64,000 nucleotides of DNA from positions 162,371 to 226,370 of the forward strand of contig CAWFRQ010000003.1 in assembly GCA_963818305.1 (NCBI GenBank), written 5' to 3'. This document shows positions 13,381-38,513 of the stretch, piece after piece; position 1 is the stretch's first letter; each line of letters opens with the position of its first letter. The position numbers and the translations under genes are program-made. The notes below the pieces were generated by a model. It was not told the DNA's origin. It made no database searches and saw nothing but the letters and a program-made list of their open reading frames with translations. Source of the DNA: an uncultured Chloroflexia bacterium (GTDB lineage Bacteria > Chloroflexota > Anaerolineae > Anaerolineales > Anaerolineaceae).

Positions 13381-14733
13381 ATGAATCTGAAAATCTCCCC
13401 CACCACGAAGTTGTCTGGCAGCGTCCAATTACCGGGCGACAAATCCATCTCTCACCGTTCGGCGATTTTTGCAGCTTTAGCTGAAGGTGACAGCCGGATT
13501 GAGAACTTTTTGGTGGGTGGGGTAACCCAGGTAATGTTGGATGCTCTGGAACAGCTTGGAGTATCCTGGGAGCTGCAGGGAACCATGTTGAGCGTACATA
13601 GCCGCGGGATGTACGGGTTCAAAAGTCCCGAAAAACCGATCTATTGCGGTAATTCTGCCACTACCATGCGACTACTGGCTGGTTTGCTGGCTGCTGTTGG
13701 CGTGGATGCCACCCTGGATGGATCGGAGGGTTTGCGCCGACGCCCTATGGGCAGAATCATGGATCCGTTGTTGGAGATGGGAGTACCGGTAGAGGGACAG
13801 AATGGTTGCGCGCCCATTACGATCCACCGGCCGCATTATCCTCTCAAAGCGATTCATACCCAATTGCCAGTCGCCAGCGCACAGGTGAAAAGTTGCCTTT
13901 TGTTGTCAGCCCTCGCAGCCAATGGACCAACTTCCATTGTAGAACCTGGTTTATCCCGGGATCATACCGAACGGATGCTGCGTGGACATGGGATTGAAGT
14001 TCGCAGCGAAAAGATGGGCAGTAATGGGGATACATGTTATTCCACTACCCTCGTTCCGCCACGGAACATCAGCTTCAAACCTCTACAATTATGTCTCCCC
14101 GGCGATTTTTCATCTGCAGCATTCTTGATCGTGGCGACACTCATCACCCCCAACAGTCTGATTTGTATTCACGATGTGGGATTGAATCCAACCCGTACCG
14201 GTTTGCTGGATGCACTTTTAGAGATGGGGGCAGATATTCACATCCAGAACCAGCGCAACTCGTATGGCGAGCCGATCGGCGACCTGTGCGTAAAGTCGAG
14301 TGAGCTGCATGGATGTACGATACACGGCGAGCAAGTGGTACGAATGATCGATGAGTTCCCCATTTTCAGCGTGGCAGCTGCATACGCAAAAGGTACTACC
14401 CTGGTTAAAGATGCAGCAGAATTGAGATTGAAAGAATCTGACCGGATCGCATCCATCTGTAACGAACTAACCAAGTTGGGGGTGGGAATTGTTGAAACGA
14501 CAGACGGATATTGCATTCACGGTGGTACCGGTCTGGTTGGTACAGAGGTCGATTCGCATGGAGATCACAGGCTGGCGATGTCACTTGCGGTAGCTGGGCT
14601 GGGTGCTCAATCTCCGCTGGTTGTGAAAAATGCAGAGATGATTGATGAGTCATACCCGCAATTTATCTCAACGCTCGCCAGGCTGGGGGCAGAGTATGCA
14701 TTTGAGCAAAAGGAAGAACGACTAACTGTTTAA
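13381..14733 (+). CDS. aroA: 3-phosphoshikimate 1-carboxyvinyltransferase (EPSP synthase)
   Basis: LPGDKSISHR, GNSATTMRLL, RRRPMGR, LKESDR and DHRLAMS motifs. ATG at 13381, immediately after the tyrA stop. Confidence 0.95.
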   Translation: MNLKISPTTKLSGSVQLPGDKSISHRSAIFAALAEGDSRIENFLVGGVTQVMLDALEQLGVSWELQGTMLSVHSRGMYGFKSPEKPIYCGNSATTMRLLAGLLAAVGVDATLDGSEGLRRRPMGRIMDPLLEMGVPVEGQNGCAPITIHRPHYPLKAIHTQLPVASAQVKSCLLLSALAANGPTSIVEPGLSRDHTERMLRGHGIEVRSEKMGSNGDTCYSTTLVPPRNISFKPLQLCLPGDFSSAAFLIVATLITPNSLICIHDVGLNPTRTGLLDALLEMGADIHIQNQRNSYGEPIGDLCVKSSELHGCTIHGEQVVRMIDEFPIFSVAAAYAKGTTLVKDAAELRLKESDRIASICNELTKLGVGIVETTDGYCIHGGTGLVGTEVDSHGDHRLAMSLAVAGLGAQSPLVVKNAEMIDESYPQFISTLARLGAEYAFEQKEERLTV

Positions 14734-14750
14734 GTGGGCGGAGCTACGGG

Positions 14751-15611
14751 ATGCATCAACTTTCAAATCCAACTTATTACTACCATTTAGGGTTGCTCGG
14801 TTGGCCGGTGGAACATAGTCTCTCTCCCCGACTTCACCGGGCTGCATTGACTGCTGCTCATCTAGCGGGTGAGTATTGTCTGATCCCGGTTGAAAACAAT
14901 GACCGTAGGGATCAACAACTATCCGGTTGGATCGAAGAACTTAAGCAAGGCGAACTCGACGGTTTGAATGTCACCATCCCACATAAACAACACATCTTGC
15001 CATTCGTAGATGATTTGACCGGCTCGGCAAAGAAGATTGGGGCGGTCAACACCCTCTACTATAAAGATGGACGGGTTGTGGGTGAAAACACCGATGCGCG
15101 TGGATTTATAAGCGATCTAACCCTCCAGTTTTCCCACCTGCAGAAATCTGCGAAGAAGGCTTTTATTTTCGGTGCGGGTGGGTCCGCACGGGCAGTGGTC
15201 TATGCATTATCGAATGATAATTGGCAAGTGACAATATCCTCAAGGCGGGTCGAGCAAGCCAATGAGCTATCCGCCAGTTTTGATGGAAATTGCAGGGTGG
15301 TACGAGCGGATAAATCTCACGAGGAACTGGAACGAGGCGGATATGACCTGGTCGTGAACTGTACTCCCATTGGGATGAATCCTTACCCGGAACAGAGCCC
15401 ATGGCCGGAAGATCTGGATTTTCCCAAGGGAATCTGCATCTATGATCTGGTGTATGCCCCAAGGGAAACCCGGCTGATCTGGCAGGCAAAGGCATCGAAT
15501 ATCCGCGCCTGTAACGGCCTGGGGATGCTGGTCGAGCAAGCTGCGCTGGCGTTTGAAATCTGGACAGGGATGAAAGCAGATCGGGCTGCGATGAAAGCTG
15601 CTGTAGAATGA
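14751..15611 (+). CDS. aroE: Shikimate dehydrogenase
   Basis: GWPVEHSLSP, NVTIPHK, GAVNT, NTD and GAGGSARAV motifs in the AroE order. Confidence 0.9.
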   Translation: MHQLSNPTYYYHLGLLGWPVEHSLSPRLHRAALTAAHLAGEYCLIPVENNDRRDQQLSGWIEELKQGELDGLNVTIPHKQHILPFVDDLTGSAKKIGAVNTLYYKDGRVVGENTDARGFISDLTLQFSHLQKSAKKAFIFGAGGSARAVVYALSNDNWQVTISSRRVEQANELSASFDGNCRVVRADKSHEELERGGYDLVVNCTPIGMNPYPEQSPWPEDLDFPKGICIYDLVYAPRETRLIWQAKASNIRACNGLGMLVEQAALAFEIWTGMKADRAAMKAAVE

Positions 15612-15669
15612 AACAAGGACTTACAAAAACTCTGATAGATCAAGGTTTACGCAATGAAGAGGTGGTAAA

Positions 15670-16842
15670 GTGACGCTTCGATTTCTAACTGCGGGAGAAT
15701 CGCATGGCCCGGTTCTGACAGTAATCTTGGATGGGATTCCGGCTGGTCTTAAATTAACGTCCGCTGATTTTGCGGACGATATGCAGCGCCGCCAAACCGG
15801 TTATGGCGCAGGTCCGCGTATGAAAATGGAACAAGACCTGGTCGAAATCACAGCCGGTGTCATGGCGGGCCAGACCACCGGAGCGCCGATCGCATTAACC
15901 ATCCAAAACCAGGATCATAAAAAATGGAAAGGGACAACCATCGAGGCGATGACCGCTCCCAGACCAGGGCACGCGGATTTAGGCGGGGTGGTCAAATATG
16001 GGTATAACGACCTACGCCCAGCTCTTGAGCGTGCTTCTGCCCGTGAGACCGCCGCCCGGGTGGCGATGGGAAGTGTTTGTAGAAAATTATTGCTTGAGTT
16101 TGGAATTCGAGTGGGAGGATACGTAATTTCAATCGGAGAGATACCTTCCGATTTAAGCGCACTACCGGTGGAAGAACGTATTGAAAAGGCACGCATTTCA
16201 AAGGTGAATTGCCCTGATCCGGCAGCATCCGCCAGGATGGTCGAGCGAATCCGTAAAGTGATGGACGAAAAAGATACCCTGGGGGGAGTCATTGAAGTAG
16301 CTGGGTTGGGTGTTCCGCCCGGGTTGGGGTCTTTTACCCAGTGGGATAGCCGTTTGGAAAGTAGATTGGGTGCAGCCATCCTGAGTGTTCAGGCGGTCAA
16401 AGGAGTGGAGATCGGTCCTGCTTTTGAGAATACTTTGTCCCCCGGAACGCAGGTGCACGACCCAATATTATTGGAAGGGGCGGAGTTAGTACGTTCCAGC
16501 AACCGGGCTGGAGGAATAGAGGGGGGGATCTCTACCGGTGAGCTGATCCTGATTCGAGCAGCCATGAAACCGATCGCATCCACCCTCACGCCACAGACCA
16601 CGGTGGATCTCAAAACCGGTCAACCAGCTGTTACCCGCTATGAGCGTTCTGATTTTTGCCCGGTTCCACGGGCAGTTGTCGTGCTGGAAGCTATGACAGC
16701 ATTCGTCCTGGCAGATGCACTCCTCGCCAAGCTAGGCGGTGATTCGCTGGCTGAAATGAGAGCCCGATATGAATCACTATCCAGAAATCGGTTGTCTGAT
16801 ATTCATTTGAATGGGCAAGCACAGACCTGGTGGCCGGCATGA
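15670..16842 (+). CDS. aroC: Chorismate synthase
   Basis: LRFLTAGESHGP, RPGHADL, SARETAARVA and GGISTGE. GTG start. Confidence 0.95.
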   Translation: MTLRFLTAGESHGPVLTVILDGIPAGLKLTSADFADDMQRRQTGYGAGPRMKMEQDLVEITAGVMAGQTTGAPIALTIQNQDHKKWKGTTIEAMTAPRPGHADLGGVVKYGYNDLRPALERASARETAARVAMGSVCRKLLLEFGIRVGGYVISIGEIPSDLSALPVEERIEKARISKVNCPDPAASARMVERIRKVMDEKDTLGGVIEVAGLGVPPGLGSFTQWDSRLESRLGAAILSVQAVKGVEIGPAFENTLSPGTQVHDPILLEGAELVRSSNRAGGIEGGISTGELILIRAAMKPIASTLTPQTTVDLKTGQPAVTRYERSDFCPVPRAVVVLEAMTAFVLADALLAKLGGDSLAEMRARYESLSRNRLSDIHLNGQAQTWWPA

Positions 16843-18431
16843 AATCCAATTCAATTTTTTTGTACGGTCCATCCGGCGCGGGAAAAACTACTATCGGTAG
16901 AATTCTATCAGATCAGTTAGGGCTGCCGTTTCATGACCTGGATCAGGAGATCGAAGTTCGTCTGAACCGTACCATCCCTGAGATTTTCCGTGACATGGGT
17001 GAAGACGGATTCCGAATACATGAACAACTCCAATTACAGTTGTTATTGCAATCAAAGGTAAAAAGTATCGTCTCTTTGGGGGGCGGTACCTTGTTGGATC
17101 CGGAAAATCGTCACATGGTTGAAGAACAAGGAAGCGTGATCGTTCTGCATTCCTCAATTGAGCACCTCTCACGCCGTTTGCGGAACGATCCTCATGCCAG
17201 ACCGTTATTGGCTGAAAACCTGGAAGAGAAACTATCCCAATTGCTACAGAGCAGAGAAGGCCATTACACCTCATTTGCATCGCAGTTGAATACCAGCGAC
17301 CTGTCTCCAGAGCAGGCAGTCCGATGGATCCAAACGCGGATCGGACATTATCACCTCAAGAGTATGGGTGAGTATGATGTACTCGTCACTTCTGACAGTC
17401 TAGATCTGATTGGCGAGGAATTAAAAGCACGCAAATTAGCAGGACCTATTGCTCTGGTCTGCGATGAAAACATAGCCGGTTTGTACGCTGGGCGGGTTCG
17501 CGATTCGCTAGTTCAACAAGATCTCGAAGTTGCGAGTATCGTTCTCCCAGCCGGTGAGCAGCATAAGAACATTCAGACCATCTCTCGCCTGTGGTCTGAT
17601 TTCCTTGGCGCAGGTTTGGAACGAACCAGCACGGTGGTTGCGTTAGGCGGTGGAGTGATCTCTGATATGGCGGGATTTGCCGCGTCCACTTATCTACGGG
17701 GAATCCGCTGGGTAGCGGTGCCAACCACGCTACTTGCGATGGCGGATGCCAGTATGGGCGGGAAGACAGGGATTGACCTGCCCGAGGGGAAAAATTTAGC
17801 TGGTTCTTTCCATCCACCTAGCCTGGTGTTGCAAGATCCAGAAGTGCTTCGCACTCTGTCGATCGAGGAACTTCGGAGCGGTTTGGGAGAGGTGATGAAG
17901 CATGGGATCATCTCTGATCCCCCATTATGGGAGACTTGTATCAGGCTGGGTGATCCTGCCGGATGGGGAGAACAATGGAATGAAATTGGCAATGTGGTCC
18001 GGCGCGCGGTCGCAGTTAAAGTGGATGTGATTGAATCAGACCCGTATGAAAAAGGTAGGCGGGCAGTATTGAATTATGGGCATACCGTTGGTCATGCAAT
18101 TGAAGTGTTATCTAATTTCAGTATTCGGCATGGTGATTGTGTGGCCACTGGAATGGTGGTGGAAGCCCAAATGAGTGAACTTTTAGGTCTGGCGCAGTCT
18201 GGTTTGACCGAAGAGATCGTAGGTGGACTGCAAAGAGTGGGTTTGCCCACGGCAGTACCAGGCTCGCAGTCTGTCCAGAAGATCATGCGAGTGATGCAGT
18301 ATGACAAAAAGAAATCAGGCGGCAAGGTCAAATTCGCTTTGCCGGTTCAACCGGGAGAAGTCAGAGAAGGGATGGAAGTGGATGACCGAACAATCGAAAC
18401 AGCGATCTTATCTCATCTTGCACGGGCCTAA
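16839..18431 (+). CDS. aroKB: Bifunctional shikimate kinase / 3-dehydroquinate synthase (AroK-AroB fusion)
   Basis: N-terminal P-loop kinase ([19 protein letters not shown]), followed from ~aa 175 by DHQ synthase motifs ([43 protein letters not shown]). The ATG overlaps the aroC stop (ATGA). Confidence 0.9.
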
Positions 18432-18849
18432 TTTAAATTTGCTTGGCACGCGCGAGCCTGGGGTTTATGGAAGCGCGACTTTGGAGCAGATCAATGCCGG
18501 TCTGGAGCATGTCGTAATGCAGATGGGGGTGGACCTGAAGTTCCGTCAATCGAATATCGAAGGAGAGCTGGTGGATGCGATTCAAGATGCACGCCAGTGG
18601 GCAGATGGGATTGTTTTGAACGCAGGTGGCTACACCCACACCTCGGTCGCTATTCGAGATGCAATTGCAGCAATCGGAATCCCAGTGGTGGAAGTGCATC
18701 TATCGAATGTATTTGCGCGCGAAGAGTTCAGGCATATCTCGTTGATTGCGCCGGTTTGCGCCGGCTCGATCAGCGGCTTTGGTGCATTTTCGTATGAATT
18801 GGGATTGCTGGCTATTGATCACATGGTATCGAAAAAGCAAAGAATGTAG
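18382..18849 (+). CDS. aroQ: Type II 3-dehydroquinate dehydratase
   Basis: [34 protein letters not shown] and VEVHLSNV. The only plausible start (ATG 18382) overlaps the aroKB 3' end by 50 nt in another frame. Confidence 0.9.
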
Positions 18850-19021: not shown

Positions 19022-20062
19022 TTAAACTATCAACTTCTTCAGCGCCAGGGTGAGCACCATTACCGCCTTTTCGTACTCTTCCAGTGACAGACACTCCCCC
19101 GGAGTGTGATCGAGGGAAGAATCGCCGGGGCCGTATACAAGGGCCGGGCAAGACCAGACCGGGGATACGATATTCAAATCGGCTGTACCGGTTTTATATA
19201 CAAAACTGGGCGAACCACCCGTTTCACGGATGGCAGCTAGCATGGCCCTAACTAGGGCCGTGTTCTTTTCACAGCTCCAGGCATCTACCGGGTAACCAAG
19301 CGGAATAATATCTGCGTCCTTCACAGTCGATCTGACCATTTCGCACCAACCATCTGGAGGTACATCCAGTGGCAGACGGGCGCCAATGTTCATACTGGCT
19401 GTCTGCGCATCAGATGTGGTTTCGGAGTGCATCTCAGAGAGCGTCACCAGGATCTGGTCGAACAGGCGGGATTTTCCGCTATTGAATTGATCCGCTGTTG
19501 ATTTGATCTTCAGCCAATCTTCCACCAGTAATTCACTGCTGGTTTTTGCCCCACTGGCAGAATGAAATTGACTTTGACTGTGGGTCATTTTCAGCCAGGC
19601 AGAACCCTTATACCCCAGCGCAATCCGATCCCAGCGGTTGGGTTCGCCTACCACCAGAAATTGTGGCTGGTACTGGTCGAGGATGAAGCGGGCACCGACT
19701 GAGTCTCGTTCTTCTTCTACCGCCCCAATCACCACCACCTGCCAGCCGGGAATTGTGCCCAGATTGGCAACAGCGTCCACGAAACAGGCTAATGGACCTT
19801 TGGCGTCCACGCTGCCGCGCCCGTGCAGGATGTTGCCTTCTACGCGTACCGGAATCTCACCCGGGACGGTATCAATATGCCCAAGCAGAACGATCTGCCG
19901 CGGGCCTTCACCCCAGATCCCTATCGCATTCCCGACCGGGTCGACAAATGAATGCGAGGCGCCTAATTTAGTCATACGGGCGCTCAGCCAGGCAGAAGCA
20001 AAAACCTCTTCTCCGGAGGGGCTATACAGTTTAACTAAATCGATCAAGGTTGTGAAATCCAC
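19022..20062 (-). CDS. lysK: [LysW]-lysine/ornithine hydrolase (M20 peptidase, ArgE/LysK family)
   Basis: LLGHIDTVPG and HGRGSVDAKGP are M20 metal-site motifs. It is the last gene of the lysW operon. Confidence 0.8.
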   Translation of the reverse strand: MDFTTLIDLVKLYSPSGEEVFASAWLSARMTKLGASHSFVDPVGNAIGIWGEGPRQIVLLGHIDTVPGEIPVRVEGNILHGRGSVDAKGPLACFVDAVANLGTIPGWQVVVIGAVEEERDSVGARFILDQYQPQFLVVGEPNRWDRIALGYKGSAWLKMTHSQSQFHSASGAKTSSELLVEDWLKIKSTADQFNSGKSRLFDQILVTLSEMHSETTSDAQTASMNIGARLPLDVPPDGWCEMVRSTVKDADIIPLGYPVDAWSCEKNTALVRAMLAAIRETGGSPSFVYKTGTADLNIVSPVWSCPALVYGPGDSSLDHTPGECLSLEEYEKAVMVLTLALKKLIV

Positions 20063-20065
20063 AGA

Positions 20066-21259
20066 TTACCGTTCCAATTCGGAAGGATGGAGCGCCAATA
20101 CTTCTTCGATGGCAGCTACTACCTGGTCGATCTGCTGGGTAGAGATCACCAGTGGTGGCAAGAGCCGTATGACCGTTAGGCCGGCGTTGAGTGCGAGTAT
20201 CTTTCGATCTTGCAAGGCACGGATGTATGGCATGGCTTTGGTTTTTAGTTCGATCCCGACCATCAATCCTAATCCGCGTACTTCGCGGATCTGGCTGGAC
20301 TGGATCTTTCGCAATTGATCCATCAAGTATTGCCCTTTGACGGCAGCCTGATCAGATAGTTGTTCGTTCTCGATCGCATTGATAGCAGCCAGCCCAGCAG
20401 CACAGGCTAACGGATTTCCACCGAAGGTAGATCCATGCAACCCTGGCTGCAGATTATGAACGCTTCGACCAATCAACACCGCGCCCATAGGCAGACCACC
20501 CGCCAGCGATTTCGCGCAGCACAGTATATCGGGGGTGACATTGGTGTGTTGGATGGCGAACATCTTTACCAGTCCGGCCGAAATCCGGTTTGCACTTCAT
20601 CAATAATGAATAGTGCCCCAGTCTGGTCGCAAATATTCCGAACATCCGCAAGATAAGAAAAATCAGCAGGGTACACCCCGCCTTCACCCTGTACCACTTC
20701 CAGTATGACCGCGGCAGTTTTCTCATTGACCGCGTTGCGCATCGCTTCAGCATTGTTGAAGGGCACATGGCTGAAGCCGGGAACGAGCGGTTCAAACCCC
20801 TCTCGATATTTTTTGTTATAGGTGGCAGAAAGCGCTCCAAAGGTGCGACCGTGGAAGCAGCGCATGGCCGCAATAATTTCGGAGCGTCCGGTAGATAAAC
20901 GGGCGAATTTGATGGCTGCTTCGACCGTTTCAGTGCCCGAATTACAGAAAAATACGCGGTCCAAGCCGGGCACCAGGCTGGTGATCTTCTCCATCAGCGC
21001 GGCACGCTGATCGTTGTAAAAAGTCTCGAATAGACGTAATTAGCCGGGTAGATTGCTCGGCTATGGCAGCCGCAACCGCCGGGTGACCATGCCCCAGGTT
21101 GGCGACCCCGTGCCCGGAAGAACAATCCAGGTACTCTTGCCCGTCAATATCAAACAGGCTGGCGCCTTTTCCGCTCACAAAGATGATCGGCTGCTTGCCG
21201 TACAATCCGCTGGTATGGGCATCTTCGGACGCCATGATTTCGGAAGGGGTAAGTCTCAT
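20066..21259 (-). CDS. lysJ: [LysW]-aminoadipate semialdehyde / acetylornithine-type class III aminotransferase; two frameshifts as assembled
   Basis: GHGVANLGHGHP (ORF 20942..21259), FFCNSGTETVEAAIK...IIDEVQTGF (ORF 20566..20994) and CCAKSLAGGLP...GSTFGGNPLA (ORF 20066..20563). Confidence 0.85.
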
Positions 21260-22072
21260 TGGATGATCGTACCTTTCCCGGCCAAAGCATCTGTGACCGG
21301 ATGCTCAGTTCTGCCATCGGCGATGATCACGCGCTGGACTCCGCCATTCAGGGCTTCTTCCGCACCCAGCACTTTTTTCTTCATCCGTCCCTGGGCGGCT
21401 TCGAGGGCAGATGGAATTTTTGACCGGCTCAATTCATGAATCAGAGAATCGGGGTCTGGAAATTTAGCCATCAGACCGGGTACGGCGGTGAGTAAGGATC
21501 AGGGTTTGAGCGTGTAGAGCAGCTGCGACCATCGCCGCTGCTCGATCCGCGTCCACATTCAATGCTTCCCCTTTTTCGCTGCAGGCGATGGGGGCGATCA
21601 CCGGGATGTAACCGGCTGCAATCAAGGTGTGAATCAGATTAGCATTCACCGCATCGATCTTGCCGGTGTAATCATCTCGAATAATCTTGCGTTTGCCGTT
21701 TTCTACACTTTGAATCGATTCTTTGCGGGTAGCCTGCAGCAGGCGACCATCCAGACCGCACAGACCGAAGGCGTTCACACCTAATTGCTGCAATTGCTCC
21801 ACTAAGAAGGTATTTACCTTGCCATTGACAGCTTGGATGAAGATTGCCAGGGTAGCCCGGTCGGTGTAACGGGAAGTATAGCCGGAAGGGGAGGTGATAA
21901 AGCGCGGCGGCTGTCCCAGACTTTCTCCTAGTAGATTGGCTTCGGCTGAACCGCCATGTACCAGAACGATCTTCTGTCCTTTACCAACCAGGCTGGCTAC
22001 ATCGGCGCAGATATTGGAGAAATCCACGCCTTCTGTGCCGCCCAGTTTGATTACCAGAATGTCATCTGTCAT
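21256..22072 (-). CDS. lysZ: [LysW]-aminoadipate/glutamate kinase (amino-acid kinase family); one frameshift near ~21470
   Basis: ILVIKLGG, VLVHGGS and NVDADRAA in ORF 21464..22084. The C-terminus (GRMKKKVLGAEEAL..VIIADG) is in ORF 21256..21471. Confidence 0.85.
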
Positions 22073-22087
22073 AGTATCTCCCAAATC

Positions 22088-23122
22088 CTATACCGGATGC
22101 AGGCCGGGGAATTTCAAACCTGTCGTCTCATCGAAGCCGAACATCAGGTTCATGCACTGCACGGCTGACCCAGATGCGCCTTTCATGAGGTTGTCGATTG
22201 CGCATAGACTAACAATATGGCCATTCGATTCGTCCAGTTCAAATCCCAGATCGGCATAATTCGATCCCGCTAATATCTTTGGTTCGGGGACACGGTAGAT
22301 TCCGCGTTGTTCTTTGACGATCCTAATAAAGGGATTCTCAGTTGCGATTGTGCGGTACGCTTTCCATAAATCGCGGGTAGTGATTCCATCTTTTACCCGG
22401 GCGTGGACGGTGGCCAGCGCGCCGCGCACCAGATCCACGGAAGTCATGGTGAGGGATACATTGTTGACACCCATTTCCTGAATTACCTCGGCTGTGTGAC
22501 GGTGTCCAAATGGAGAGAAGGTACGCACAACCGAAGATCGTTCTGGATGGTGTGAGCCCGGGTTACCCTCTGCTCCTCCCTCACTCGAACCGACTTTGAT
22601 CTCTACCAGAATCTGTTGATCTAATTCAATACATCCGGCTTTGACCAACGGGTACAATGCCAGGTTAGCGGCAGTGGCATTGCAGCCAACACCACTCACA
22701 TAGCTGGCGATCTTGATCTCTTCCCGGTGCAATTCCGGCAGACCATAGATGAATTTACTCGTCCAATCGGGTGCCTGGTGTGGATGGCCATACCATTGTA
22801 GGTACATCTGTGGGTCTTTGAGGCGAAAATCGGCTGATAGATCAATAATTTTATTAGCCTTCGCCGCCAGCGTCACGATTTTATTCTGGGCTTGACCGTG
22901 GGGTAATGCTAGAAAGAGCACATCCACCGCTTCGACCTGTTCAGGGTCAATGAACTTGAGATTGCTGACCTTTCTCAGATTGGGGTGTACCTGGTACACG
23001 TATTCGCCCAGGTGAGACCTGGAGGTAGCAGCAATCACCTCCACCTCTGGATGGAAGCATAACAGGCGTAATAGTTCGCCTCCGGTATAACCTGATCCCC
23101 CGATGATGGATGCTCGTATCAT
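22088..23122 (-). CDS. lysY: [LysW]-aminoadipyl/glutamyl-phosphate reductase (ArgC/LysY family)
   Basis: [16 protein letters not shown] and the active-site region [10 protein letters not shown]. The start overlaps the lysX stop (ATGA). Confidence 0.9.
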
Positions 23123-23988
23123 TTCTCCTCCGATGCTGCTACGGCCATAACATATTGCACAATTTCATCTGCCACATCCACCCCGCTGATGGGTTGGAGG
23201 GTGTGGAACTCCATGGTGTGGTTGATCTCATTTACCAGCAGACCTTTCTGGGGGTGTTCCACCAGATCCACCGCCAGAACTCCTCCACCGACAGCTTGTG
23301 CTGCCCGTAAGCAAAGAGACTCGATTTCAGGTGTGATTGGGCAAATCTCACCTTCGCCTCCCTTGGCTGTGTTGGTGATCCAGTGCGGGCTTTTCCTGTA
23401 GATGGCGGTGAGTACCCGGTCACCAACCACCACGGCGCGGATATCACGACCAGGTTTTTCGATGAATTCCTGAATGTAAAACACACTGTGTTGCACCGAT
23501 CCGAGGGTGGCTTTGTGCTCCAACACAGCTTCGGCGGAATCTCGGTCATTGATCTTGGCCAACAAACGTCCCCACGATCCAACTACCGGTTTCAGCACCA
23601 CGGGATAGCCAAATAATTCAATCGCTTCGAGCGCCGATTCGATAGAAAATGCAGCCATGTTGCGCGGCTGTGGAATACCATCCCTGGCCAGTAGTGCACT
23701 GGTAGTCAGTTTATCTCCACACACTTCGGCTACTGCAGCAGTGTTCACCGTTTTCACGCCGAAGGCGTTCAATAACCGTAAGGCATAGAGTCCGCTGTTA
23801 TAACTGATCGATCTTTCTAACACGGCATCATACACCTTCCAGGGCGAAGGATCATCCAGGTCAAAGTGGATCGCTCGGTCATCCAGGCGGTCATAATCGA
23901 CCCCGCGTTTTTCCATCGCGCCGAAGATCCATTTCTCTTCCACGCGGACGCGCGAATAAAGTACGCCGATCCGCAGTCTGCGTTTCAT
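23119..23988 (-). CDS. lysX: RimK-type ATP-grasp ligase (LysX/ArgX: attaches the amino acid to the LysW C-terminus)
   Basis: [21 protein letters not shown]... and the ATP-grasp core ([29 protein letters not shown]). The internal Met at 23988 is chosen; the ORF extends spuriously to 24141. Confidence 0.85.
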
Positions 23989-23993
23989 AACGG

Positions 23994-24164
23994 TTACTCG
24001 CCCCAGTCTTCTTGTTCCATGGGGGCAGGTTCTACGACCGCCGGTTCCAGAGAGACCACTTCCAAATCGATCCCACAATCCGGGCAAACAATGATTTCGC
24101 CCATTTCTGTATTGGCAGCTAATTCGATATCGGCGGCACATTCAGTACAAGCTACAGTAGACAT
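23994..24164 (-). CDS. lysW: Amino-group carrier protein LysW
   Basis: 56 aa, with zinc ribbon CTEC...CPDCG and the acidic C-terminus ...EQEDWGE typical of LysW/ArgW carriers. Confidence 0.85.
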
Positions 24165-24208
24165 ATTTTCTCCTTTTGAAGTATGAATCAAATTTAGATT
24201 GGCTACGA

Positions 24209-25477
24209 TTAATCGCGTTTGAAGCGAGAATAATCAGGTTTGGGAATATCCAGGCCTGAAACAGGCAAACCATTTAGAGCTCTCACTTTGAGCGAAAGCC
24301 CTAACAAACGGATGAATCCTTTGGCATCGCTCTGGTCGTACACATCTTCCTGGCCAAAGGTGGCAAAATCTTCGCGGTAAAGGCTGAATGGACTGGTTCT
24401 TCCAGCAGAGATGATGTTTCCTTTGTAGAGTTTAAGGCGAACTACACCGGTGACCGGTCCCTGAGTGGCATTCACGAACGCATCCATGGCTTCGCGCAGG
24501 GGAGTGAACCACATGCCATCGTAAACCACTTCGGCATACTTGAGTGCCATCGTGTCTTTAAAGTTCATGGTTGCCCGGTCAATAACCAATGATTCGAGCT
24601 CTTTATGGGCGAACAATAGGATGGTTCCGCCGGGAGTCTCGTACACGCCATGGGATTTCATCCCTACCAGCCGGTTCTCTACCAGGTCTACCCGACCGAT
24701 GCCGTGCGCCCCACCCAACGCATTTAATGTGGTGACAACCTGCGCCGGAGTCATCCTTTCTCCATTGATGGCTACCGGATTTCCGGTTTCAAAGGTGATC
24801 TCAACATACCCGGGTTCGTCTGGTGCGTTTTCAGGGGAGGCGCTGATCTGGTACATTTCTTCTTCAGGTTCATTCCAGGGATCTTCCAGCAATCCGCCTT
24901 CATGTGAGAGGTGCCACAGGTTGGCATCCCGACTATAGATCGACTTCTTTGTGGCTGTAACAGGTACATGGTGCACTGCGGCATAAGCGATAGCATCTTC
25001 TCTCGAGCGGATGTTCCATTCCCTCCAGGGGGCAATAATTTTCAAACGTGGATCTAAAGCCATCACGGTCAGTTCAAAGCGCACCTGGTCGTTCCCCTTG
25101 CCGGTGGCTCCATGGGCGATGGCATCTGCACCCACCTGGTGTGCAACTTCCACCAGATGTTTGGCGATCAGCGGCCGGGCGATGGAAGTACCCAACAAGT
25201 ACTTCCGCTCATAGACCGCACCTGATTTGAGCAAGGGAAAAAGGTAATCGGCGGCAAATTCTTCCCTCAGGTCACCAATGATTAACTGACTGGCTCCAGA
25301 TTTAAGCGCTTTGTCTTCCAGTCCGCTCAGATCTTCCCCCTGGCCTACATCAGCGCAGTAACAAACTACCTCGCATCCGTAGTTCTCAATGAGCCAGGGG
25401 ACAATAACTGAGGTATCCAGCCCGCCCGAGTATGCTAAAACTACTTTCTTGATTGATTGCTTTTCTATTGGATTCAT
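24209..25477 (-). CDS. argG: Argininosuccinate synthase
   Basis: [28 protein letters not shown] and [13 protein letters not shown]. The ATG at 25477 is preceded by AGAGGAG. Confidence 0.95.
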
Positions 25478-25501: not shown

Positions 25502-25531
25502 AAAAAAAACCGCCACCCAGAAGGATGACGG
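25502..25531 (-). terminator. Intrinsic terminator in the argG leader (attenuator)
   Basis: Minus-strand RNA CCGUCAUCC-uucu-GGGUGGCGG followed by U8, ~25 nt upstream of the argG start codon. Confidence 0.6.
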
Positions 25532-25568
25532 TAGTGAGTACTGATTTTATGCGTAGCTGGCTCTCGGC

Positions 25569-25664
25569 TTAGCGGGAACTCCACTCAAACACAAAATCCC
25601 ATCCTTCTATGGGGAAGATGGGGCGCTTACGACGTAAGCGGAGTTCAGTGAGGTTCTTGTTCAT
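25569..25664 (-). CDS. Candidate leader ORF MNKNLTELRLRRKRPIFPIEGWDFVFEWSSR (31 aa) upstream of argG
   Basis: ATG at 25664 and TAA at 25571-25569. There are four Arg codons within codons 9-14 (RLRRKR). These codons abut a segment that takes part in alternative pairings with the terminator. The coding status is uncertain, because the Arg codons also form a palindromic hairpin. Confidence 0.4.
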   Translation of the reverse strand: MNKNLTELRLRRKRPIFPIEGWDFVFEWSSR

Positions 25665-25813
25665 AATGGTCGCAACTATACTACACGGTTTTTTATGCGT
25701 CAAGGAATTTTGGAAAAATTGTACTTCCTATTGGTATATTGTGTTGAATAATGGGACATGGTGATAGAGTGAGATTTGTCGTCATATTCCTGGTGAGGAA
25801 AAATTTACGATTG

Positions 25814-27166
25814 CTAAGGTCGATCACTCGTCAGGCGGTGAAGCCCAGCCATTCCGACATACAGGATGAGTGGAATTATCGGAATGAGATATCTCACCTG
25901 ACCATCAATTGCCATGTGCCCGGCACAATAGAGAGCAATACATCCTATATACATCCAGGGTCTGGGTTTGGAGAATAGAATTCCGGCAAGGAATAATATC
26001 AGAACGATGGATTGCTGAATTACAACCTGCGTGTCTTGCTGGGTCCATTTATCGGGTACGCCGATATTGAACCACAGCGGAATGATACGATATACAGAAA
26101 GTGCCAGAAATCGGGTCGGGTATTTTTGTATCAACTGAAGGGCAGCTTTCTGGTATATCTGGTCCATTTGACCTTCATCTTCATTTCCTTGCAGGTTTGG
26201 CAGAGATAGCAATAGTGCATCACGATATTCATTAGCTTCACGGATTTTTACATAATGAAAATAATCAGGCGATTGGATCGGTGAATTGTGCCGGAAGAGG
26301 TTATAACCAGAGAGAGAAGTTAACATTGGCTTATCAAACAATGCATAGTTTCTAATAATCCATGGTGCGACAACAATCCCACATGTTATTGCCAGCGTCA
26401 ATGCAGATTTTATTGAATTCTTAGAAATCCTATAGCCAGACTTATCGGAATTTAGCATTGTGAATCCACAAATTACAAAAGTGGGAATGAGCATAGCTGA
26501 CCGGGAAAGGATTGCAAGTCCTAACGCGATACCTGCCGGCACCAGCAGTAGAAGTTTTCTGGATAAGTCAAAACGGTAAAGAAAGATTAAGCCGATTGTG
26601 AACCAGAAAGAAGCGGAAAGATCTCCTGTATTGTTAACAAATAAGCTTTGCAATGGCTGATAGGTTATCCAAATCAAGGCGGCAAGGCAAGCGAGCAAGG
26701 CACCAAATTTGGATTTCACCAAAGAATACAATCCAACAGTAACCCCCAGGAAAAGGAGATACTCCACCAAAAAAGCAGCCACAAGCGATTTGTTCAATAC
26801 TTTTGCCACTACGTAAAATTGAAGAACCATTAATGGCTCACGCATCGCAGTGAGTTTTTGGCTATTTTTACAAAAGGGAAAATAACTGGTAGTGCAAGCT
26901 GAATATCCCTTTCCATTAATCATATGTTTTGTAATCGTCCACGGATCATCTGTTCGCTTTGCTTCGTTGACAGTGGGATTGGTTTTAATTACAACAAAAA
27001 ATACCACAGCTGATAGGATAATTAAGAGTAGCAAACACCATCGTTCATGCTTCTGAAACCATTTTTGTAATTCTAGCCAGCCCATCTGTTGCTTTTTATT
27101 GTCCAAGAGGATCACCTTGATAATTTTTTTCAGATAACAAACCAAATCATTATGTAAACTAATCAT
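25814..27166 (-). CDS. Polytopic membrane protein, GT-C-fold glycosyltransferase-like (ArnT/PMT family 39/83 style)
   Basis: About 10 or more hydrophobic segments and a first-loop acidic motif, RTDDPWTITKHMINGKGY, typical of the PMT_2/ArnT-like family. The real start is probably the internal Met at ~27085. Confidence 0.55.
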   Translation of the reverse strand: MISLHNDLVCYLKKIIKVILLDNKKQQMGWLELQKWFQKHERWCLLLLIILSAVVFFVVIKTNPTVNEAKRTDDPWTITKHMINGKGYSACTTSYFPFCKNSQKLTAMREPLMVLQFYVVAKVLNKSLVAAFLVEYLLFLGVTVGLYSLVKSKFGALLACLAALIWITYQPLQSLFVNNTGDLSASFWFTIGLIFLYRFDLSRKLLLLVPAGIALGLAILSRSAMLIPTFVICGFTMLNSDKSGYRISKNSIKSALTLAITCGIVVAPWIIRNYALFDKPMLTSLSGYNLFRHNSPIQSPDYFHYVKIREANEYRDALLLSLPNLQGNEDEGQMDQIYQKAALQLIQKYPTRFLALSVYRIIPLWFNIGVPDKWTQQDTQVVIQQSIVLILFLAGILFSKPRPWMYIGCIALYCAGHMAIDGQVRYLIPIIPLILYVGMAGLHRLTSDRP

Positions 27167-29570: not shown

Positions 29571-31145
29571 ATGTCCGAAAACGTAATTAATGAAATGTCA
29601 CGCCGAAATTTTTTAAAGACCATGGGCGTACTTGGTGGTGTAGCCGCTACTTCCGGTATGCTTGCTGGTTGCGCTCCACAGAAAGCCGCTGGAGTCACCT
29701 GGGATAAAACCGCTGATGTGGTCATTTTAGGTGGTGGTGGAGCTGGTTTGGCTGCCGCGATCAGCGCCAGTAAAGCCGGTGCCGGGAAATCTGTCGTCGT
29801 CTTAGAGAAGGGCGCTGCAGTCGGTGGATCCACCTCCATTTCTGGTGGTGTTATCCAGGCAGCTGGCACCAAATACGAAGCTGAATTCAAGAATGTAACC
29901 GATGATACCCCGGAAAAACATTACCAGTTCTACATGCAAACCAGTGAAGGATTTGTGGATCCCGAATTGGTCAAAGTGCTCACCGACAACGCTCCCGCGG
30001 CCATCGATTGGATGGTAGGGCTTGGTTTGACCTATGTCAATACCTATGCTGTATCACCCAATCCAAATGTTGATGAACAAAATCGCCTACCCCGGATTCA
30101 TGTCCCTGGTGGTGGTGGTGATACAGCCAAAGCTGGAACTGGCGCTGTACACGTTGCGGTATTAGAAAAGAATGTCAAAGATCTTGGCCTTGAAATTATG
30201 TTGAATACTACCGCCAAGAATTTGGTCATGGATGATGCTGGTAATGTGGTCGGTGTCAAAGCCAAATCCGATGGCAAAGCCATGATGATTAAAGCCAATA
30301 AGGGTGTCATCATTGCCACCTCTGGTTTTGATCGCGATGTAGATATGTGCAAAGCCTTCTCCCTGCAGCAATTATGGGAACTTGAGACAGGCGTCTGCTA
30401 TGTCGCTCCGGGGAATACCGGCGATGGAATCAAGATGGGCATGGCTGCTGGTGCAGCATTGGCCAGCCTTGGTGGCACCATCGGCGTTGAAGCTGTCGCT
30501 ATGGGCGCAGATCCGTTGGCAGAGGGTGTTACTGCGGTTCCAGGTATCTGGGTCAACCTGCAAGGGCAGCGTTTCGTCAACGAAGCCACCCACTATGCTT
30601 ACAGTGTTCGCGCGGTCTTCAACCAGGAAGCACATAAAGCCTGGGCGATCTTCGATGATAAAGTTCGCGCCATGGGCGGGGCTGTGTTAGGCAGTATTTG
30701 GGGACCCTGGACTGATGACCTGGCTGATGAGATTTCGAAGGGTAAAGTCTTCAAAGCAGATACTCTCGAAGAACTTGCCGCAGCCATCGGCGTGAATGAA
30801 TATCAACTACCTCTCACGGTAGCGCAGTGGAACGAACAGGCTGCTGCCGGTGAAGATAAACTCTTCGGCAAGAAAGTTGGTTTACAGGCTTTCGAAACCG
30901 CTCCGTTCTACGCCACCCCGGTGACTTCAGTCAATCTGGGCAGCTGCGGTGGTTTGAAAATCAATACCAAGTGCCAGGTAATGGATGTGTTCGGACAGCC
31001 GATCCCCCACCTGTATGCAGCTGGTATGGCCGCTGGTGGTTTCATTGGACCGTACTACCCGGGCAGCGGTACCGCCGTATTAGCGACCGTGGTTCATGGC
31101 CGAATCTCGGGCGAAGAAGTTGTAAAGGAAACCGCAGTAGCATAG
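29571..31145 (+). CDS. Tat-exported FAD-dependent oxidoreductase (fumarate reductase / flavocytochrome-c flavoprotein family, FAD_binding_2)
   Basis: Twin-arginine signal SRRNFLKTMGVLGG with lipobox-like LAGC, dinucleotide fold VVILGGGGAGLAAA, and C-terminal GLYAAG-type motif (HLYAAGMAAGG). GGAGGA Shine-Dalgarno before the ATG at 29571. Confidence 0.8.
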   Translation: MSENVINEMSRRNFLKTMGVLGGVAATSGMLAGCAPQKAAGVTWDKTADVVILGGGGAGLAAAISASKAGAGKSVVVLEKGAAVGGSTSISGGVIQAAGTKYEAEFKNVTDDTPEKHYQFYMQTSEGFVDPELVKVLTDNAPAAIDWMVGLGLTYVNTYAVSPNPNVDEQNRLPRIHVPGGGGDTAKAGTGAVHVAVLEKNVKDLGLEIMLNTTAKNLVMDDAGNVVGVKAKSDGKAMMIKANKGVIIATSGFDRDVDMCKAFSLQQLWELETGVCYVAPGNTGDGIKMGMAAGAALASLGGTIGVEAVAMGADPLAEGVTAVPGIWVNLQGQRFVNEATHYAYSVRAVFNQEAHKAWAIFDDKVRAMGGAVLGSIWGPWTDDLADEISKGKVFKADTLEELAAAIGVNEYQLPLTVAQWNEQAAAGEDKLFGKKVGLQAFETAPFYATPVTSVNLGSCGGLKINTKCQVMDVFGQPIPHLYAAGMAAGGFIGPYYPGSGTAVLATVVHGRISGEEVVKETAVA

Positions 31146-38428: not shown

Positions 38429-38513
38429 GCCGAAGTGGCGGAATAGGCAGACGCGCACGACTCAAAATCGTGTACCCTCGGGTATGTGGGTTCGATTCCC
38501 ACCTTCGGCACCA
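38429..38513 (+). tRNA. tRNA-Leu (anticodon CAA), CCA encoded
   Basis: Acceptor GCCGAAG/CTTCGGC, anticodon stem-loop CACGA-CTCAAAA-TCGTG, long variable arm TACCCTCGGGTAT, T-arm GTGGG-TTCGATT-CCCAC and 3' ACCA. Confidence 0.95.

Follow-up and report, generated by a model that had tools for sequence, protein, structure and literature searches.

A candidate arginine-codon leader-peptide attenuator ahead of argG-lysWXYZJK in Anaerolineales

The leader ahead of argG

The window analysed here is the whole 64 kb stretch (64,000 nucleotides) of contig CAWFRQ010000003.1, from an uncultured member of the Anaerolineales (Chloroflexota), and all positions refer to it. On its minus strand the window carries argG-lysWXYZJK, an operon preceded by a compact leader in which a promoter, a short open reading frame (ORF) rich in Arg codons, a set of mutually exclusive RNA pairings and an intrinsic terminator follow one another within about 200 nucleotides (nt). 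This leader is the subject of the present report, and is described as a candidate transcription attenuator. Its elements, and the first gene that it would regulate, are as follows, with lengths of paired regions in base pairs (bp) and with alignment columns referring to the alignment of relatives, A1, introduced below.

25675-25703, minus strand: sigma-70-type promoter TTGACG-17 nt-TATAGT, the best promoter match of the region (10/12)
25569-25664, minus strand: leader ORF of 31 codons, ATG 25664-25662 and TAA 25571-25569, reading MNKNLTELRLRRKRPIFPIEGWDFVFEWSSR to the stop codon, with a putative leaderless-type start
25623-25640, minus strand: Arg codon block R-L-R-R-K-R (CGC UUA CGU CGU AAG CGC), read from the sequence
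25614-25622, minus strand: segment 1 (B), CCCAUCUUC, 5′ arm of the predicted anti-antiterminator hairpin, starting immediately 3′ of R14 and 6 nt past the R11-R12 pair
25598-25608, minus strand: segment 2 (C), AGAAGGAUGGG, able to pair with segment 1 or with the 5′ arm and loop of the terminator
25586-25597, minus strand: U-rich tract AUUUUGUGUUUG after hairpin 1:2, a conserved U-run (A1 columns 104-112)
25519-25528, minus strand: segment 3, UCAUCCUUCU, the predicted 3′ partner in the antiterminator, comprising 6 nt of the terminator 5′ arm and the 4-nt loop (masked folds, duplex energy)
25502-25532, minus strand: intrinsic terminator with a 10-bp stem, ACCGUCAUCC/GGGUGGCGGU, loop UUCU and U8 (terminator scan; -16.2 kcal/mol)
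24209-25477, minus strand: argG, argininosuccinate synthase (NCBIfam NF001770, E = 2.8e-189), with a Shine-Dalgarno sequence, GAGGAG, at 25490-25485

A first-pass annotation, made from the sequence of this stretch alone, had drawn attention to a 31-codon minus-strand ORF from 25664 to 25569 with four Arg codons in six positions, and direct reading of the sequence bears this out, the Arg codons being R9 (CGC, 25640-38), R11 (CGT, 25634-32), R12 (CGT, 25631-29) and R14 (CGC, 25625-23). The ATG at 25664 sits 10 nt past the -10 box with no Shine-Dalgarno sequence between them, and transcription is predicted, rather than mapped, to start at ~25668-25666, which would place the ATG only ~2-4 nt from the 5′ end of the transcript.

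Downstream of the Arg codons, segment 1, CCCAUCUUC (25622-25614), pairs with GAAGGAUGGG of segment 2 (25607-25598) to form a hairpin of 9 bp with one bulged G (-10.9 kcal/mol). Segment 2 also contains GAAGGAUG, the exact reverse complement of CAUCCUUC at 25527-25520 in the terminator 5′ strand, and with the flanking A-U and G-U pairs this 2:3 pairing extends to 10 bp, 25608-25599 with 25528-25519 (-13.8 kcal/mol). The energies of hairpin 1:2, pairing 2:3 and the terminator are thus graded, at -10.9, -13.8 and -16.2 kcal/mol, as expected of a switch, and the whole window leader folds better than shuffled sequences (z = -2.4). These results agree with the first-pass annotation in the position of segment 2 (25598-25607) and its pairing with segment 1, in the 8-nt complementarity of segment 2 to the terminator, and in the terminator itself with its U8, which the scan places at 25532-25502. 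The segment 1 that had been proposed at 25611-25622 exists, but the range given was slightly too wide. The same annotation had cautioned that the Arg codons lie in a palindrome, and a palindrome, CGCUUAC-GUC-GUAAGCG (25640-25624, -7.6 kcal/mol), does span the Arg codons of the window; it is not, however, a feature of the family, as described below.

Hairpin 1:2 and the U-run that follows it (25586-25622; A1 columns 68-112) resemble a terminator 3′ arm with its U-tail (GGUUGGGAGCUUUUU compared with GGAGGGCUGUUUUU), and were picked as terminator-like in 26 of 78 aligned leaders. This combination could function as a pause site or as a first terminator, and the U-rich tract at 25586-25597 may be a site at which RNA polymerase pauses.

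Conservation of the leader among relatives

A search with ArgG as the query, limited to one genome per species, recovered 80 loci, all from Anaerolineales or Chloroflexota and with ArgG proteins 79-85% identical. Upstream sequence sufficient to judge the presence of a leader was available for 77 of these, and the same leader lies ahead of argG in all 77 Anaerolineales loci. Its carriers include a relative in culture, Longilinea arvoryzae KOME-1 (locus L038). A profile built from the 77 relatives, with the window left out, finds the window leader with E = 2.7e-15 as the sole match in the 64 kb, and the window leader is therefore more than a chance resemblance. A pattern scan of metagenome contigs added 120 loci. 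argG lies directly downstream in 95, the contig is too short to tell in 20 and the remaining five are chance matches, so that the leader precedes argG in 95 of the 95 informative metagenome loci. The five matches without argG (L136, L139, L157, L161 and L164) were rejected as they lie in unrelated G+C-rich or eukaryote-like DNA; L157 and L139 are in apparently eukaryotic DNA that has nothing to do with the leader.

No leader was found ahead of a gene other than argG, either with nhmmer in the window and the 80 loci or by the metagenome pattern scan, and the same nhmmer search for second copies of the leader returned only palindromic terminators on the opposite strand. Among the relatives, the terminator begins 18-61 nt past the leader stop codon and lies 20-207 nt ahead of argG. 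The comparison of argG upstream regions that had been suggested as a check of the Arg-rich ORF gave a uniform answer, with such an ORF present in 78/78 leaders of alignment A1 and in 110/110 metagenome leaders with a recognisable promoter.

A search of Rfam, likewise suggested as a way to exclude a known riboswitch or T-box, left both the window and 15 homologous loci without a match at the gathering threshold. With E values up to 10 allowed, the only match to the leader was to rnk_pseudo, a chance-level hit (E = 3.8) whose 16 bits fall far short of the gathering score of 55. T-box models matched neither the leader, whether at that threshold or with E as high as 10, nor the 15 homologous loci. 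Five of the leader peptides, compared with NCBIfam and Pfam, matched no family at E up to 10, including the his, trp, thr, phe, leu and ilv leaders, SpeFL and TnaC, although peptides this short are hard to detect.

The reading frame is conserved in a manner that separates the Arg codons from the rest of the ORF. In A1 the ORF is 20-39 codons long in 78/78 leaders, with the consensus M-F-x-x-F-A-L-P-R-x-R-R-P-x-P-T-S. R-x-R-R is in frame in 75 of the 78, and the other three keep R-x-R. The tandem Arg codons of these 75 are CGT CGT in 72, CGA CGA in two and CGG CGG in one, and the first Arg codon is CGT or CGC. The codon index of the tandem pair varies from 6 to 15, and the pair is always in frame with the ATG despite insertions and deletions in the N-terminal region, and the ATG and the tandem Arg codons stay in frame across such indels in all 188 leaders checked. 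Synonymous changes account for 0.33 of pairwise codon differences in the ORF frame, compared with 0.14 and 0.06 in the other two frames. Conservation does not extend to the Lys at +3 or, in frame, to the last two thirds of the peptide, and the stop codon falls anywhere from inside segment C to 44 nt past it. Segment C, GAGAAGGUUGGG, occurs in frames 0, 1 and 2 in 25, 28 and 25 leaders, and is read as RRLG, EKVG or REGR. The reading frame thus appears to matter as far as the Arg block and not beyond it, as would fit a leader peptide with translated regulatory codons. Together, the frame held between the ATG and the tandem Arg codons, the synonymous Arg codons, the frame-free segment C and the in-frame synonymous excess argue for a translated leader rather than an untranslated RNA motif.

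The start of the ORF is tied to the promoter. The promoter, TTGAC(A/T/G)-16/17-TAnAAT, is present in 78/78 leaders with the ATG 8-10 nt, and usually 10 nt, after the -10 box, and in all 110 metagenome leaders with a recognisable promoter the -10 box and the ATG are 8 or 10 nt apart, with the tandem Arg codons in frame. Conservation of the promoter reaches well past the hexamers, as ATTGACACATTTC...GTAGAAT and then a G+C-rich discriminator, ACCGCCCAAT, ahead of the ATG (25665-25710, and the same region in L001-L080). This extended conservation could reflect a second control at the level of initiation, through a protein site or a stringent-type discriminator. A loose pattern scan found two more short ORFs near promoter-like sequences in the window, at 30004 (minus strand) and 62675 (plus strand), which read MAAGALSVSTLTNSGSTNPSLVCM and MFDYDRFFISMMLGASLLHGWSD up to their stop codons.

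RNAalifold applied to the whole alignment gave the terminator alone, and the alternative helices were then specified by hand and scored as the share of alignment cells that are paired, with slid partners as the control. The terminator is present in 78/78 leaders, with 97% of cells paired and compensatory changes in 9 of 11 pairs. For hairpin 1:2 (B:C; A1 columns 68-75 with 85-94) the share is 84%. Most relatives have a further helix, A:D, in which the Arg codons themselves, CCGUCGUCC, are one strand and GGAUGAYGG, downstream of B:C, the other (83% paired, with many G-C/G-U exchanges); the palindrome seen in the window is a local substitute for this helix. Considered together, the pairings of the terminated state are paired in 88.9% of cells, compared with 34-54% for slid partners. 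In the antiterminator core, C:G, formed by segment C and the terminator 5′ arm and loop, 92% of cells are paired and 5 of 10 pairs show compensation. The antiterminator exceeds 8 nt in the relatives, where the U-run pairs with an A-run ahead of the terminator (U:A pairs kept in 84.5% of cells) and D with GUCAACC, and this extended antiterminator is paired in 88% of cells, compared with 44-64% for slid partners. Examples of compensation include CAAGG:CCUUG in L002 and L006, CAAGAAGG:CCUUCUUG in L063 and UUGGAAGGUUG:CAACCUUCCAA in L078. Each pairing of the 1:2 / 2:3 / 3:4 attenuator geometry that had been proposed for the window is therefore conserved with compensatory changes. In 78/78 leaders 6 nt separate the tandem Arg codons from the base of segment B, a constant spacing at which a ribosome halted at the second Arg would have that base within its footprint.

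Ribosome position and the proposed switch

As attenuation is decided before the terminator 3′ arm exists, the 78 leaders were truncated after the terminator loop and folded under a 28-nt mask that represented a ribosome and was moved along them. In the free RNA, a median of 0.33 of the terminator 5′ arm is paired upstream, and the arm and loop are 72% unpaired. With the ribosomal A site placed from -5 to +3 codons around the second Arg, the median rises to 0.74-0.89, with 59-70 of the 78 leaders at 0.6 or more, and with the A site on the second Arg itself segment C partners 71% of the nucleotides of the arm and loop. With the A site at +7 to +14 codons, the median is 0.22-0.33, and at +10 the arm and loop are 80% unpaired. 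In the window, the masked fold contains the 10-bp pairing of 25608-25599 with 25528-25519. The footprint mask thus moves segment 2 from segment 1 to the terminator 5′ arm, in line with the first-pass annotation, in which a ribosome stalled on the Arg codons was held to favour pairing 2:3.

With a short leader ORF that carries a run of Arg codons, three mutually exclusive pairings and a terminator ahead of the first biosynthetic gene, the leader has, at the level of sequence, every feature by which the leader-peptide attenuator class is defined. We consider it probable, at about 0.8, that the leader is a ribosome-mediated transcription attenuator that responds to charged transfer RNA (tRNA)-Arg and controls argG-lysWXYZJK. 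Transcription would start ~2-4 nt before the AUG, and no Shine-Dalgarno sequence would be needed for a ribosome to bind the 5′ end as it emerges. Hairpin B:C and the UUUUUGUUU behind it may hold RNA polymerase back for long enough to let this ribosome catch up. In cells well supplied with arginine, the ribosome would translate through R-x-R-R as far as a stop codon well upstream of the terminator. Once it has gone, segment 1 would re-pair with segment 2 and, in the relatives, the Arg-codon segment with GGAUGAYGG, and the terminator hairpin and U-run would then form, ending the transcript at a predicted ~25502. When Arg-tRNA is scarce, the ribosome would stall on R-x-R-R, its footprint extending over these codons to the base of segment 1. 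The freed segment 2, joined in the relatives by the U-run and segment D, would capture the terminator 5′ arm and loop as they emerge, and with the terminator blocked RNA polymerase would read into argG-lysWXYZJK.

Several observations weigh against this reading. With the complete terminator present, equilibrium folds keep the terminator even under a mask on the Arg codons (mean probability 0.88), and antitermination must then be kinetic. A mask 16-23 codons past the tandem Arg codons also favours the antiterminator, in a weaker zone in which 53% of the nucleotides pair with segment C, and a ribosome at the leader stop codon does not cover segment 2, unlike that of trp. Given the variable stop codon and this second zone, termination in arginine-replete cells must rely on release of the ribosome and fast local refolding of B:C and A:D. 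The transcript start is predicted only and, with no Shine-Dalgarno sequence, translation of the ORF depends on leaderless-type initiation. The window was found solely in low-coverage freshwater DNA metagenomes; wastewater metatranscriptome contigs cover the argG of relatives of L051 but reach no leader and, although uninformative, are counted on this side, as are the reading frames of lysZ and lysJ, both broken in this assembly. Finally, the prolines around the Arg codons (L-P-R-x-R-R-P-x-P) are conserved more than a pure codon counter needs. Their third positions are free, with Pro8 encoded by CCG in 33, CCT in 17, CCC in 6 and CCA in 2 leaders and Pro15 by CCC in 36, CCT in 12, CCA in 8 and CCG in 3. 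Paired CC dinucleotides may explain part of this conservation, to which the nascent peptide may also contribute.

The prolines are central to an alternative in which the L-P-R-x-R-R-P-x-P core stalls the ribosome by itself or with a small molecule, as do SpeFL, TnaC and the fungal arginine attenuator peptide, and shortage of Arg-tRNA is not the signal, or not the only one. Such a nascent-chain sensor would account for a core that is conserved at the amino acid level while third codon positions vary, and R-x-R is a known macrolide-dependent stalling motif (PMC12583479). Divergent members of the family, among them the window (ELRLRRKRP), L030, L060 and L063, lack the prolines while retaining the Arg codons, however, and since the CC dinucleotides of Pro13 and Pro15 take part in helices A:D and B:C, a constraint on the RNA can explain them. 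Arrest at high arginine would, moreover, turn a biosynthetic operon on, which is the wrong sign, and known arrest peptides work close to one defined site, yet here both the C-terminus and the stop position vary. We regard arrest by the peptide as quite unlikely. A hybrid, in which the same core slows the ribosome or makes it ligand-sensitive at the tandem Arg codons, so that exit-tunnel chemistry and Arg-tRNA hunger jointly set the switch, and in which the first hairpin and U-run are a real upstream terminator or pause checkpoint with its 3′ half copied in the second terminator, is speculative and also unlikely, if somewhat less so.

The leader might instead be a structured RNA, a riboswitch or the site of a regulatory protein, that controls the terminator through a bound ligand or protein and contains the ORF only incidentally. 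Its high nucleotide conservation extends to the CGUCGU core, which is paired with GGAUGAYGG in the relatives and palindromic in the window, and alternative structures need no ribosome as such. It is difficult to reconcile this with an ATG and tandem Arg codons held in frame across indels in 188 leaders, with an ATG at a fixed distance from the -10 box, with three-base periodicity in one frame only, or with the synonymous exchange of Arg codons (CGA, CGG) together with differing pairing partners; in addition, no Rfam family matches and the only gene context is arginine synthesis. A binding RNA is very improbable. Nor is it at all likely that no amino acid is sensed, with the terminator acting constitutively as a partial terminator or pause, or marking the 3′ end of a separate gene for a small RNA or small protein; this is the least probable of the explanations considered, even though equilibrium folds always favour the terminator and the leader, flanked by a promoter and a terminator of its own, could be transcribed as a unit by itself. 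Compensatory changes preserve the antiterminator pairing, argG invariably follows the leader on the same strand at a distance of 20-207 nt, no second promoter having been noted, and a peptide without in-frame conservation in its C-terminal two thirds is unlikely to be a functional small protein.

A leader-peptide attenuator specific for arginine would share most of its design with the enterobacterial attenuators trpL, hisL, pheL, leuL, thrL and ilvL, in which a short leader ORF rich in codons for the end product, exclusive 1:2, 2:3 and 3:4 pairings and a terminator precede the first biosynthetic gene, segment 1 is covered when a ribosome stalls, and hairpin 1:2 is followed by a U-rich stretch and a possible pause. 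It differs in being directed to arginine and found in Chloroflexota, in lacking a Shine-Dalgarno sequence, with a start 2-4 nt from the predicted 5′ end, and in having regulatory codons that form one strand of an extra helix, A:D, in most relatives. Unlike in trp, the stop codon is variable and well beyond segment 2, so there is no block of pairing 2:3. The lysine (aminoadipate/LysW) gene cluster of Thermus thermophilus is reportedly controlled by leader-peptide attenuation with a Lys-codon leader. That leader would be another leader-peptide attenuator on the LysW-carrier pathway family in a non-proteobacterial lineage, but it has Lys codons and serves lysine synthesis, whereas here the codons are Arg, in R-x-R-R, and argG comes first; the two sequences are unrelated as far as tested. 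For arginine synthesis, the ArgR repressor is the textbook case of regulation, and T-boxes are used in some Firmicutes. The fungal arginine attenuator peptide, encoded by the upstream ORF of arg-2/CPA1, is a eukaryotic nascent peptide that arrests ribosomes at high free arginine and blocks scanning. There too an upstream peptide-coding ORF regulates a gene of the arginine pathway, but with no Arg-codon hunger, no terminator and the opposite sign.

Two other bacterial systems are close in individual respects. Short leaderless polycysteine ORFs of mycobacteria are cysteine-responsive attenuators (bioRxiv 10.1101/834739); they too lie at or next to the transcript 5′ end, without a Shine-Dalgarno sequence, and use an amino-acid-specific codon run to tune an operon, but for another amino acid and in another phylum, and the leader described here has a clear intrinsic terminator/antiterminator switch. 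The Salmonella speF leader orf34 has two consecutive Arg codons, at which pausing of the ribosome reports the arginine supply through alternative mRNA structures (PMC6386406). There, a polyamine gene is reportedly controlled through its sensitivity to RNase G and through Rho-dependent termination, in place of the hairpin terminator found here before genes of arginine synthesis. Our search of the literature turned up no leader-peptide attenuator based on arginine, whether for arginine genes or within Chloroflexota, although subscription journals were outside its coverage and an earlier report is possible. The mechanism itself is classic; the arginine specificity and the bacterial group appear to be without an earlier report that we could find. 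An attenuator sensing arginine codon hunger would add a new amino-acid specificity to this mechanism, in the Anaerolineales of the Chloroflexota, a phylum that is poorly studied for regulation. It would also provide a further case of a regulatory ORF with a predicted leaderless-type start, and with nearly 190 examples, absent from Rfam, Pfam and NCBIfam, the leader and its small ORF form a family that can be annotated.

The downstream operon and neighbouring genes

The genes argG, lysW, lysX, argC/lysY, lysZ, lysJ and lysK were all identified downstream of the leader, in agreement with the operon that had been named when the leader was first noticed. The part beyond argG, lysW to lysK, occupies 19022-24164 on the minus strand, assigned by profile matches and reading of the sequence.

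23994-24164, minus strand: lysW, with a product ending in EDWGE
about 23119-23991, minus strand: lysX
22088-23122, minus strand: argC/lysY
21464-22084, minus strand: lysZ, truncated, with 206 amino acids matching profile positions 2-189 of 267
20066-21259, minus strand: lysJ, in three frame fragments
19022-20062, minus strand: lysK

A 43-amino-acid ORF at 24142-24273 was considered as lysW and rejected in favour of the ORF at 24164-23994. A contig from another metagenome (DNA run X2), 98% alike, has one base missing at 21035, exactly at the frame break in LysJ, and this break may be an assembly error or a strain-specific indel rather than decay of the gene. The operon would encode LysW-carrier-dependent synthesis of ornithine and arginine together with argininosuccinate synthase. 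Because the conserved codons of the leader are Arg and not Lys (the Lys at +3 being variable), the LysW-carrier genes here most likely make ornithine/arginine, and regulation by the leader would thus speak for a role of the LysW-carrier cluster in arginine/ornithine rather than lysine synthesis in these bacteria.

Immediately upstream of the leader, on the same strand, a 450-amino-acid ORF (25814-27166) looks like a multi-pass membrane protein, with no NCBIfam match at 1e-5. An aromatic leader mentioned in the first-pass annotation was looked for and not found in the parts of the window inspected. Beyond lysK, and on the plus strand, is a run of shikimate-pathway genes (13382-18849), assigned from their translations as aroA from ~13382, an aroE-like gene ending at 15611, aroC (15670-16842), an aroK-aroB fusion (16830-18431) and aroQ (18301-18849). 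The sole tRNA gene of the window, at 38429-38513 on the plus strand, encodes tRNA-Leu(CAA).

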